64,000 bases of DNA from Escherichia phage SholemSchwarzbard. The notes beneath the pieces are model-generated. The model was not told the origin of the DNA. It saw only the letters and a program-made list of their open reading frames with translations, and searched no databases. Shown here piece by piece: positions 47,339-48,192 of this stretch (positions within the stretch are counted from its first letter, which is position 1; each line of letters begins with the position of its first letter). Position numbers and translations under genes: made by a program. The stretch lies in the sequence record PP925840.1. The stretch is one strand, 5' to 3'.

Positions 47339-47407
47339 TTAGCAAGCTTTAATCAAAAGATATAAACAGACCAACATAACTGCTGCCATAATATAAGGTG
47401 CGAACAT
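47339..47407 (-). CDS. Candidate 22-aa hydrophobic micro-protein (MFAPYIMAAVMLVCLYLLIKAC)
   Basis: ATG 8 nt downstream of GGAG; lies between an early promoter and the frd.3-position ORF; very short, so speculative. Confidence 0.3.
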   Translation of the reverse strand: MFAPYIMAAVMLVCLYLLIKAC

Positions 47408-47437
47408 TTTCTTTTCTCCATTAGTTTTGATAGGGTA

Positions 47438-47467
47438 ATAGTATCACACTACTACCCTTCTGTAAAC
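47438..47467 (-). promoter_or_regulatory. T4 early-type promoter (GTTTAC, 18 nt, TACTAT)
   Basis: Reverse complement of 47462-47467 is GTTTAC and of 47438-47443 is TACTAT. Confidence 0.5.
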
Positions 47468-47847
47468 TACTTTTTGAAAGTTTTTCGCAAAAGTTCAATG
47501 ATTTCATCTACATTGTTTTCGTCAACAATGCAGTGAATTTTTGTTACGCCAGAAACCTTGTCTTTGACTTCATCTTCTTCAGAAGTAGGTTCTTTATACT
47601 CACGAAAACAATGAAATTCATCTTCGCAAATTTCTAAAAGTCTATCTTTGAGGTAAAAATGCTTTCCATTTGCGCATTCAATGTGTTTTACTGCTTTATA
47701 TCCATTAGCGACGGAAACTTCTTTAACTTCAAACCATCCGCCATTCTCTCGAATGGCTTTAACTATTGATGAATTAGAACGTGGGCTATAATTAATAAAT
47801 GTATCAATAAGTCTTGGAACAAGTTCATACTTTTTACCGGTATACAT
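47467..47847 (-). CDS. Hypothetical protein (126 aa)
   Basis: ORF between frd.3 and gene 32 with no recognisable T4 counterpart. Confidence 0.55.
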   Translation of the reverse strand: MYTGKKYELVPRLIDTFINYSPRSNSSIVKAIRENGGWFEVKEVSVANGYKAVKHIECANGKHFYLKDRLLEICEDEFHCFREYKEPTSEEDEVKDKVSGVTKIHCIVDENNVDEIIELLRKTFKK

Positions 47848-47891
47848 TACGGTTTCCTCATTTTAATAGGGGCTTGATAGCCCCTTGATAA

Positions 47892-48119
47892 TTATTGTTC
47901 AATCAGTCCCATGTAAAATTCTGCGTCTTCAGAATCCATGCCATCACAATATTCATTAGCCATAAAGCGGGTGAGGTCTTCAAGAGGACCTTCAATAACG
48001 ATTTGAATACTCCAAAACTTAGAATCTTGCACGCTTGTGATACTAAGTTCAGGATAACGATTACGAATAATTTCTTCAATATATTCAAAATCAACGATGT
48101 CAATATCAACTTTAGCCAT
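47892..48119 (-). CDS. Hypothetical acidic protein (75 aa from ATG at 48119)
   Basis: ATG preceded by AGAGGA RBS, downstream of a GTTTAC early promoter. Confidence 0.55.
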
Positions 48120-48162
48120 ATTATTTTCCTCTTTAATCATCAGCAGTATTGCTGATAGTTGT

Positions 48163-48192
48163 ATAGTACCACAGTCCTTGTGGTATGTAAAC
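48163..48192 (-). promoter_or_regulatory. T4 early-type promoter (GTTTAC, 18 nt, TACTAT)
   Basis: Reverse complement of 48187-48192 is GTTTAC and of 48163-48168 is TACTAT. Confidence 0.5.

Follow-up and report, generated by a model that had tools for sequence, protein, structure and literature searches.

The DNA under study is a 64,000-nucleotide (nt) window of Escherichia phage SholemSchwarzbard (record PP925840.1), the whole stretch that was analysed, and coordinates are positions in this window unless a phage or locus label is attached. The subject is a cluster of small genes downstream of gene 32, among them a hydrophobic open reading frame (ORF) of only 22 codons, called here the micro-ORF. 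A 2-kb query around the cluster matched 594 phage records, the best being Tequatroviruses with 97-98% identity, and by this similarity the window is that of a Tequatrovirus, a T4-like phage. Every gene of the region is carried on the minus strand. Phage T4 (NC_000866) has, downstream of gene 32, the order frd.3 (75 amino acids, aa), frd.2 (128 aa), frd.1 (80 aa) and frd. The interval is, with high confidence, the frd.3 - frd.2 - (22-codon ORF) - frd.1 part of this T4-like gene 32-frd accessory region and consists of known early expression cassettes.

ORFs of 126 aa (47467-47847), 75 aa (47892-48119) and 22 aa (47339-47407) had been listed in an initial annotation made from the sequence alone, and all three are present. 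That annotation placed them between frd.3 and gene 32 and recognized no T4 counterparts. The flanking 80-aa ORF that it named frd.3 (47086-47328) is in fact frd.1 (DUF5417); its product is identical to T4 Frd.1 at 77 of 80 residues and matches PF17438 with 114 bits (E = 3.7e-33), well beyond the family cut-off. The 75-aa ORF encodes Frd.3 and the 126-aa ORF Frd.2, and direct alignment found the intergenic DNA identical or near-identical to that of T4, including both promoters, the hairpin and the entire micro-ORF. With clear T4 orthologs for the two larger ORFs, the idea that the cassette lacks T4 counterparts is wrong. It had been described before, as the T4 genes frd.3 and frd.2 of a shuffling region of the PeSL (promoter-early stem-loop) type, and only the micro-ORF is missing from the annotation. 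The initial annotation had staked its view on there being no T4 frd.x orthologs of established function; orthologs there are, but an established function they lack. Directly seen at the locus are the gene identities, two early promoters of T4 consensus, three hairpins and a mosaic structure.

The two promoters are exact matches to GTTTAC-N18-TACTAT, as first described, at 48163-48192 and 47438-47467 on the minus strand. The site upstream of frd.3 can be written TTTACA-N17-TACTAT, has a TG upstream of the -10 and a predicted start near 48156; its hexamers are the same in T4, T2 and AR1 and its spacers differ. The second site, serving the micro-ORF and frd.1, has a predicted start near 47431, and the T4 copy has the same hexamers with two spacer differences. 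Both predicted starts are placed 7 nt past the -10. The GTTTAC of the second site begins with the G that ends the frd.2 stop codon. Both sites fit the T4 sigma-70 early promoter, with a GTTTAC -35, a spacer of 17 nt in sigma-70 terms, a TAnnnT -10, a TG or GTG upstream and orientation along the coding strand, and both are annotated as early promoters in the relative SA21RB. The pattern GTTTAC-N18-TAYWAT has six occurrences in the window, every one of them on the minus strand; shuffled sequence predicts 0.09. This excess, confined to the coding strand, argues that the T4-type early promoters are genuine and not chance matches. The small genes are thus early and T4-promoted in a plastic accessory region, as had been proposed, but they do not have a promoter each: there are two promoters for three ORFs, and the 126-aa ORF is preceded by a hairpin and a Shine-Dalgarno sequence only. 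Since the second promoter overlaps the frd.2 stop and points into the micro-ORF, frd.2 is left without a promoter of its own. A literature search for a T4 start-site or terminator map found none.

The micro-ORF (MFAPYIMAAVMLVCLYLLIKAC; 47339-47407, minus) corresponds to T4 146018-146083 plus the stop codon. Its ATG lies 8 nt from a GGAG Shine-Dalgarno at 47416-47419, and its TAA stop abuts the GGAG Shine-Dalgarno of frd.1. The peptide has a mean Kyte-Doolittle hydropathy of 2.05, an unbroken run of 18 hydrophobic or small residues and a single basic residue close to one terminus. The ORF sits on an 84-nt segment (47343-47426) that is exactly the DNA missing from T2, flanked by CTAA(T)GGAGAA repeats that are the two ribosome-binding sites. 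The same DNA is identical in T4 and absent from T2, RB69 and JS98-like phages. A tblastn search returned 200 phage records with the peptide, which is full length in all of them and identical in 161, including T4, T6, PST and RB32. None of the records listed, T4 included, has a coding-sequence annotation under it; the smallest ORF of the published T4 annotation is 26 aa (genome table, PMC4122927), and a gene of 22 codons would be smaller still.

The Shine-Dalgarno sequences of the region fall into two types. GGAG serves the micro-ORF, frd.1 (47335-47338) and an 81-aa ORF further downstream (46737-46740), all on the minus strand, and GAGG serves frd.3 and frd.2. The T4 endoribonuclease RegB cleaves early mRNAs at the tetranucleotide GGAG.

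The variation among micro-ORF copies resembles that of a coding sequence. Fourteen sequences gave ten haplotypes. The SA21RB copy has four changes, all synonymous; the OES_C-1 copy has four synonymous changes plus A8V; and in the Mosigvirus ESh15, where the ORF lies at the same locus as in the window, five of six changes fall at third positions. Three Dhakaviruses carry the ORF at another place, between motB and cef: MN04 (L019, 1201-1269), UP19 and Esco_phi_B-01 (L041 and L042, 901-969). These copies are preceded by the same type of promoter-hairpin leader and differ at 12-13 of 66 nt, with length and stop codon kept and all replacements among hydrophobic or small residues. The minimum numbers of substitution events at the three codon positions are 6, 2 and 13 (binomial p = 0.007), and 15 of the 22 residues are invariant. 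The other two frames of the same DNA gain stops in ESh15 and MN04, and an overlapping alternative ORF, also of 22 aa (47353-47421), was rejected as it is broken by stops in these two phages. A Shine-Dalgarno 7-8 nt from the ATG is kept in three leader sequences (GGAG, GGAG and GAGG). Folding of the leader RNA gave less structure than in shuffled controls (z = +1.5), making a structured RNA unlikely there. A scan of the whole window for hydrophobic ORFs of 12-45 codons that have a Shine-Dalgarno and lie outside larger ORFs returned the micro-ORF and no other. In Esco_phi_B-01 the gene downstream of the micro-ORF was seen to have a different start (ATGGCTAAAGTT...).

Other sources added little. 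No counterpart of the micro-ORF was found in E. coli genomes and plasmids, and pattern scans of IMG/VR and JGI metagenomes returned only four copies, all identical to that of T4. A text search of the literature found the peptide string in no paper, and a literature search for ribosome-profiling or proteomic data on it found none. A CRISPR interference (CRISPRi) guide overlapping the 3' end of the ORF had no fitness effect.

A ribosome-binding site, a hydrophobic helix of membrane length and conservation at the peptide level are the sequence features expected of a gene for a small single-pass membrane peptide, and the micro-ORF has all three. From the substitution pattern and the retained start signals, the ORF appears, with fair though limited confidence, to be a translated and selected peptide gene. 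The fuller proposal is given a slight preference: that the micro-ORF is a genuine T4 gene without a coding-sequence annotation, specifying a single-pass membrane peptide and traveling on a mobile early-promoter/leader cassette that is inserted before different genes. The cassette itself sits before frd.1 in Tequatrovirus and in one Mosigvirus and before cef in Dhakavirus, and it is present or absent among near-identical phages. The predicted product would most likely be a single-pass inner-membrane peptide.

Very small hydrophobic peptides are familiar from bacteria, among them the type I toxins Ibs and ShoB and the inner-membrane regulators AcrZ and MgtS. Like them, the micro-ORF peptide falls in the size range of about 20-30 residues and has one hydrophobic helix, with one basic residue close to an end. 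It differs in that it has no sequence similarity to them, no antisense RNA has been identified with it, and it is phage-borne on a promoter cassette.

Short ORFs of another kind occur in a related place. The T4 leader between motB and cef (L038, 984-1153; T4 6483-6652, minus) has an early-promoter-like site and a long hairpin followed by GGAGAATAAAATG, with an 11-codon ORF, MENSLKVLILF. Short ORFs with Shine-Dalgarno sites may be recurrent in early leaders.

The strongest alternative is that the micro-ORF is not a gene at all, either a chance ORF or the 5' remnant of a lost gene in a mobile leader, and that it looks conserved as its copies are recent. This is a possibility of some substance, if a less probable one. 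It accommodates the 161 identical copies among 200, the T2 and many other close relatives that lack the ORF with no visible consequence, and the unaffected fitness under the overlapping guide. The 11-codon ORF of the T4 motB-cef leader, which is different in sequence and has its own Shine-Dalgarno, suggests moreover that short ORFs are frequent in such leaders. A chance ORF or remnant would not, however, be expected to concentrate its substitutions at third positions (p = 0.007), to carry four changes in SA21RB that are all synonymous, or to keep its length, stop and hydrophobicity in Dhakaviruses after 12-13 of 66 nt have changed. Nor does it explain why all 200 copies are intact while the other two frames gain stops, or why the Shine-Dalgarno is held at 7-8 nt in three leader sequences. 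The low degree of structure in the leader disfavors an RNA element as the conserved object, and the absence of any second ORF of this type from the 64-kb window disfavors a common accident.

The second subject of the region is frd.2 (126 aa; 47467-47847, minus), which belongs to family PF03197, FRD2 (115.1 bits against a cut-off of 29, E = 2.4e-33). Its product is identical to T4 Frd.2 (NP_049852) at 86 of 129 positions, and the final 50 aa are all identical. The C-terminal module, GVTKIHCIVDENNVDEIIELLRKTFKK, is nearly invariant: the columns of the motif GVTKIHCIVDxxNVDxIIELLxKTFK are invariant or nearly so across 21 sequences, and the C-terminal 27 residues of the family are almost unchanged down to 37% overall identity. 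About 80 residues at the N-terminus belong to another allele than that of T4, nearer to the T2/KRT47 type.

The boundary of this difference was mapped by scanning the interval 47086-48300 against T4 in 30-column blocks. Identity is 27-30 of 30 per block almost everywhere, and two places depart from this. One is a replacement block at 47600-47855 (minus), with 14-21 of 30 and gaps, apart from one block at 26 of 30; two blocks at its 3' edge within frd.2 (47594-47648) score 18 and 24 of 30. The other is the frd.3 promoter spacer (48154-48210), with 24-26 of 30. Expressed as nucleotide identity to T4, the replacement block stands at about 50% and the rest of the interval, the frd.3 promoter spacer excepted, at 90-100%. 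The block extends from the ribosome-binding site of frd.2 to approximately codon 82, exactly the extent of the predicted N-terminal barrel domain. The bounded replacement and the near-invariant C-terminus together lead to a reading of Frd.2, from these alignments, as a variable N-terminal domain on a fixed C-terminal module, the variable domain being exchanged as a unit.

The N-terminus of Frd.2 is predicted to form a five-stranded, bent antiparallel beta-barrel of the SH3/LSm type, with FeoA/Tudor-type barrels among the fold matches. This model agrees with a published LSm-like prediction, in which the T4 early proteins Frd.2, GoF and MotB.1 share an LSm-like (SH3-like) barrel predicted for their N-termini (Kim et al. 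2025, PMC12152347). The effect on RNA shown in that paper is the one of GoF(D25Y) (PMC12152347). Profile comparison with hhalign related Frd.2 to MotB.1 with E = 0.0078 over 81 collinear columns and to GoF with E = 0.076 over 29 columns; the profile is shallow (effective sequence number, Neff, 2.3), and the relation is suggestive at best. A sequence search against solved structures gave no match for Frd.2. By its modeled fold, Frd.2 most likely binds a partner, RNA or protein, through the variable SH3/LSm-like barrel, to which the invariant C-terminal strand-helix module is attached.

A frd.2 amber mutant plates normally, with an efficiency of plating (EOP) of about 1, and the gene is dispensable in the laboratory (PMC12152347). 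The CRISPRi-ART screen reported frd.2 as the sole "Fit" T4 gene of unknown function (PMC11879866). In the supplementary table of that study frd.2 scores 0.83 (p = 0.027) against 3.29 for gene 32, the individual frd.2 guides inspected range from +1.1 to -2.0 and are not fit, and frd.1 and frd.3 are both "Not fit" (PMC11879866). The "Fit" call for frd.2 is marginal. The frd.2 RNA has served as a stable reference in quantitative PCR (qPCR) 5 min after infection (PMC6070864).

In several T4-like genera the same region also contains a diverged second Frd.2-like gene of 120-137 aa (L011, 631-1002; L013, 1509-1922; L020, 358-720). The N-terminal pattern is shared and the C-terminal strand-helix motif is related (...ALIKATFGI or ...EIKEIFGIK). 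The gene frd.2 thus has local paralogues, and these change position.

The gene frd.3 (75 aa; 47892-48119, minus) lies just downstream of gene 32 behind its early promoter, a layout shared with T4, T2 and AR1. Its product is identical to T4 Frd.3 (NP_049853) at 75 of 75 residues and matches PF05798, Phage_FRD3, over residues 1-75 of 75 (135.6 bits, cut-off 28.1). Position, strand, promoter and hairpin are also as in T4; the promoter spacer differs. An in-frame ATG upstream would give an 82-aa version, but T4 has ATA there, so the longer reading is not conserved and the 75-aa start is the conserved one.

Frd.3 is strongly acidic, with an isoelectric point (pI) of about 4.05 and 18 aspartate and glutamate residues against 5 lysine and arginine. 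An AlphaFold2 (AF2) model with a predicted local distance difference test (pLDDT) score of 94.6 shows a ferredoxin-like beta-alpha-beta-beta-alpha fold plus a helix. Fold searches returned generic ferredoxin-like matches and uncharacterised T4-like orthologues only, and a sequence search against solved structures gave nothing significant, with one chance-level match (E = 0.92). Among 1.84 billion representative proteins the Frd.3 profile found seven matches, one of them an artefact. The latter, P0065, is a 2044-aa cysteine-rich tandem-repeat protein whose E = 5.9e-10 arose from 11 weak repeat matches summed, and it was rejected as a relative. By profile and model, Frd.3 appears to be a small acidic ferredoxin-like protein of T4-like phages only, and such a protein would most likely act by binding another protein. 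A literature search found no paper giving Frd.3 or Frd.1 a function. The frd.3 mRNA of T4 is reported to be among the most abundant phage RNAs capped with nicotinamide adenine dinucleotide (NAD) (bioRxiv 10.1101/2024.04.04.588121). Together with the frd.2 RNA present at 5 min, this is indirect support for transcription starting right after infection.

Four stem-loops bear on how the interval is transcribed. Upstream of the frd.3 promoter lies the intrinsic terminator of gene 32 (48223-48241, minus), a GGGGACC/GGUCCC(U) hairpin followed by a U-run, which is the only call of the terminator scan here and is also found in T4, T2 and AR1. At the predicted extreme 5' end of the frd.3 message is a leader hairpin of 8 bp with an AUAC loop (48138-48157, minus; -9.6 kcal/mol, z = -4.25). 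Reading of the leader sequences indicates that it is only partly conserved, with weaker pairing in T4 and a G-U pair kept in T2; it could protect the 5' end of frd.3 mRNA or affect its stability. A conserved hairpin in the frd.3 promoter spacer, suspected from the window and T4 sequences, was rejected because neither T4 nor T2 forms one (z = -0.6 and +0.3).

The third hairpin, AGGGGCU-AUCA-AGCCCCU, lies between frd.3 and frd.2 (47868-47885, minus; -12.9 kcal/mol, z = -2.6). It is GC-rich with a tetraloop, is identical in T4 and has the same stem with a different loop in T2. The initial annotation had noted a tetraloop hairpin after the 75-aa ORF, correctly as to its existence, but at 47863-47882, and had called it a terminator, which its lack of a U-tract does not bear out. 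The fourth is a 12-bp hairpin (47432-47458, minus; -19.1 kcal/mol, z = -4.9) whose 3' arm holds the -10 hexamer of the second promoter. A hairpin is kept at this place in six sequence-different versions, those of T4, the JS98-like phages, RB69, ESh15, L010/L013 and MN04, with free energies between -15.4 and -19.1 kcal/mol and z scores between -2.3 and -7.1. Per-variant folds were used in place of formal column-wise covariation because the pairing register shifts by one between variants. A Rfam search of 46400-49600 gave no match.

Stable as they are, the hairpins at 47868-47885 and 47432-47458 lead into UAUUAAAAU and UAUCAAAAC and not into a U-run, and the consensus terminator scan called neither. 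The predicted start of the second promoter lies 3' of the 47432-47458 stem, so that this hairpin can form only on RNA arriving from frd.2, and its role there may be to define or shield the 3' end of the frd.3-frd.2 message. Expression of the interval would then run as follows. Right after infection the host sigma-70 RNA polymerase would start at the frd.3 promoter, which comes directly after the gene 32 terminator and an AT-rich tract. The transcript would cross the U-less hairpin into frd.2, which is probably read through from the frd.3 promoter in this way, and would end or be trimmed at the strong hairpin enclosing the next -10. The second promoter would start a message with the micro-ORF, frd.1 and the downstream genes.

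It is unlikely, though conceivable, that both hairpins are instead efficient terminators, with frd.3 monocistronic and frd.2 expressed from an unrecognised promoter such as a middle promoter. Prediction programs did annotate terminators at both hairpins in SA21RB, effective termination by PeSL stem-loops is reported for RB49 and phi1 (PMC2839356), and a loose GCTT...TAnnnT match lies within frd.3 at about 47968. This view is opposed by the missing U-runs and the silence of the consensus scan at both places, and no convincing MotA-type promoter was found upstream of frd.2, where a suitably spaced TGCTT MotA box is missing. That frd.2 mRNA is measurable 5 min after infection, the basis of its use as a qPCR reference, fits read-through from an early promoter.

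The initial annotation went on to suggest that the cassette, having no T4 counterpart, encodes anti-defence or host-takeover effectors as independently promoted small genes. This is improbable: the genes are indeed early, small and accessory, Frd.3 is as acidic as some phage inhibitor proteins are, the frd.2 N-domain is swapped between near-identical phages as expected of a module tracking a variable target, and the micro-ORF is a presence/absence polymorphism, but T4 counterparts exist (Frd.3 and Frd.2), frd.2 has no promoter of its own, the Frd.2 and Frd.3 fold matches are generic, no PADLOC, Pfam or solved-structure match ties any product to defence or counter-defence, and the frd.2 amber mutant plates normally (PMC12152347) with null or marginal CRISPRi-ART scores for the genes (PMC11879866). 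The PADLOC models returned nothing for Frd.1, Frd.2, Frd.3 or a neighbouring 110-aa ORF and one weak match (E = 0.014) for the 81-aa ORF. The products of frd.3, frd.2 and the micro-ORF are accessory and dispensable in the laboratory.

The order of the small genes is itself variable. At the frd.2-frd.1 junction T2 and many other close relatives are 84 nt shorter, and AR1 and others have an extra 86-aa gene. Downstream of gene 32 the JS98-like locus (L011) has frd.2-like, frd.2, ar1_247-like, frd.3 and frd.1; locus L013 has frd.2, ar1_247-like, frd.3, frd.2-like and frd.1; ESh15 has frd.2-like, frd.2, micro-ORF and frd.1; and RB69 has an unrelated 75-aa ORF, frd.2 and frd.1. The promoter-hairpin segment recurs elsewhere in T4-like genomes, beside internal-protein, thioredoxin and motB/cef genes.

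This behaviour is that of the PeSL cassettes of T4-like phages (Arbiol 2010, PMC2839356; Comeau 2014, PMC4122927), in whose hyperplastic regions crossovers have been mapped between the -10 and the Shine-Dalgarno (PMC2839356, PMC4122927). The frd.3 cassette (48120-48241) has the PeSL order of gene 32 terminator hairpin, U/AT-rich tract, TTTACA-N17-TACTAT, Shine-Dalgarno and ATG, with the leader hairpin before the Shine-Dalgarno. Both the layout and the T4/PST promoter consensus TTTACW-N17-TAYWAT are matched (PMC4122927, PMC2839356). The association of PeSL with indels and gene exchange is also seen here, in the 84-nt indel between -10 and Shine-Dalgarno, the extra gene of AR1, the permuted orders and the motB-cef copy. 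At this locus the mini-circles and recombination of PeSL are deduced from sequence comparisons. Conserved hairpin, promoter and Shine-Dalgarno segments would double as short homology patches, and recombination at such patches would add, remove and permute small genes between phages. The 84-nt micro-ORF indel, the motB-cef copy in Dhakaviruses, the permuted orders and the frd.2 N-domain swap could all be examples.

Several points weigh against the overall reading of the locus. The second promoter (47438-47467) is unlike PeSL: its stem-loop encloses the -10 and is not upstream, and in place of an AT-rich tract the coding sequence of frd.2 extends to the -35. Promoter and hairpin here form a composite outside the published PeSL layout. 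Read-through of the hairpin at 47868-47885 and formation of a 3' end at 47432-47458 are steps that we infer, and neither element has a U-tract. The diversity of the micro-ORF is low, with 161 of 200 peptides identical and many relatives without the ORF, so that its selection signal rests on 21 inferred substitution events. The roles given to Frd.2, Frd.3 and the micro-ORF product are predicted ones.

Neighbouring spots vary as well. Between frd.1 and frd (46486-47075, minus) the window has two ORFs that T4 lacks, T4 having a gap of 71 bp there: one of 110 aa (DUF7247, phrog_3566) and the above-mentioned one of 81 aa (phrog_3183). At the same spot T2 has the 81-aa ORF only, and AR1 has a different 119-aa ORF together with the 81-aa ORF. 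The frd.1-frd spot is another variable site of the same region. On the other side of gene 32, gene 59 (49272-49925) follows after about 100 bp (49173-49271), where T4 has the homing endonuclease gene segG; a gap of this size means that segG is absent from the window. A 115-aa ORF (45538-45885, minus) lies just downstream of frd (end 45905), where T4 has td directly after frd, and relatives annotate a hypothetical protein between frd and td. A repeat scan of 47300-48300 added nothing.

As first submitted, the finding carried little weight, as it rediscovered T4 frd.3, frd.2 and their early promoters and mislabeled frd.1. What retains interest is the micro-ORF and the domain-level swap in frd.2. 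In the latter, a predicted RNA- or ligand-binding barrel is exchanged in one block between near-identical phages and the C-terminal module remains invariant, and this modularity suggests a route to the target of the protein. The interval as a whole illustrates natural shuffling of cassettes at linkers of the promoter, hairpin and Shine-Dalgarno kind, and it includes a hairpin that encloses a -10 and exists in six forms. The micro-ORF is a candidate new T4 gene, a hydrophobic ORF of 22 codons with a ribosome-binding site and codon-level conservation, present at two genomic locations and in three genera. T4 is among the best-annotated phages, and a gene missed there would be a useful reminder of micro-genes in phage leaders.

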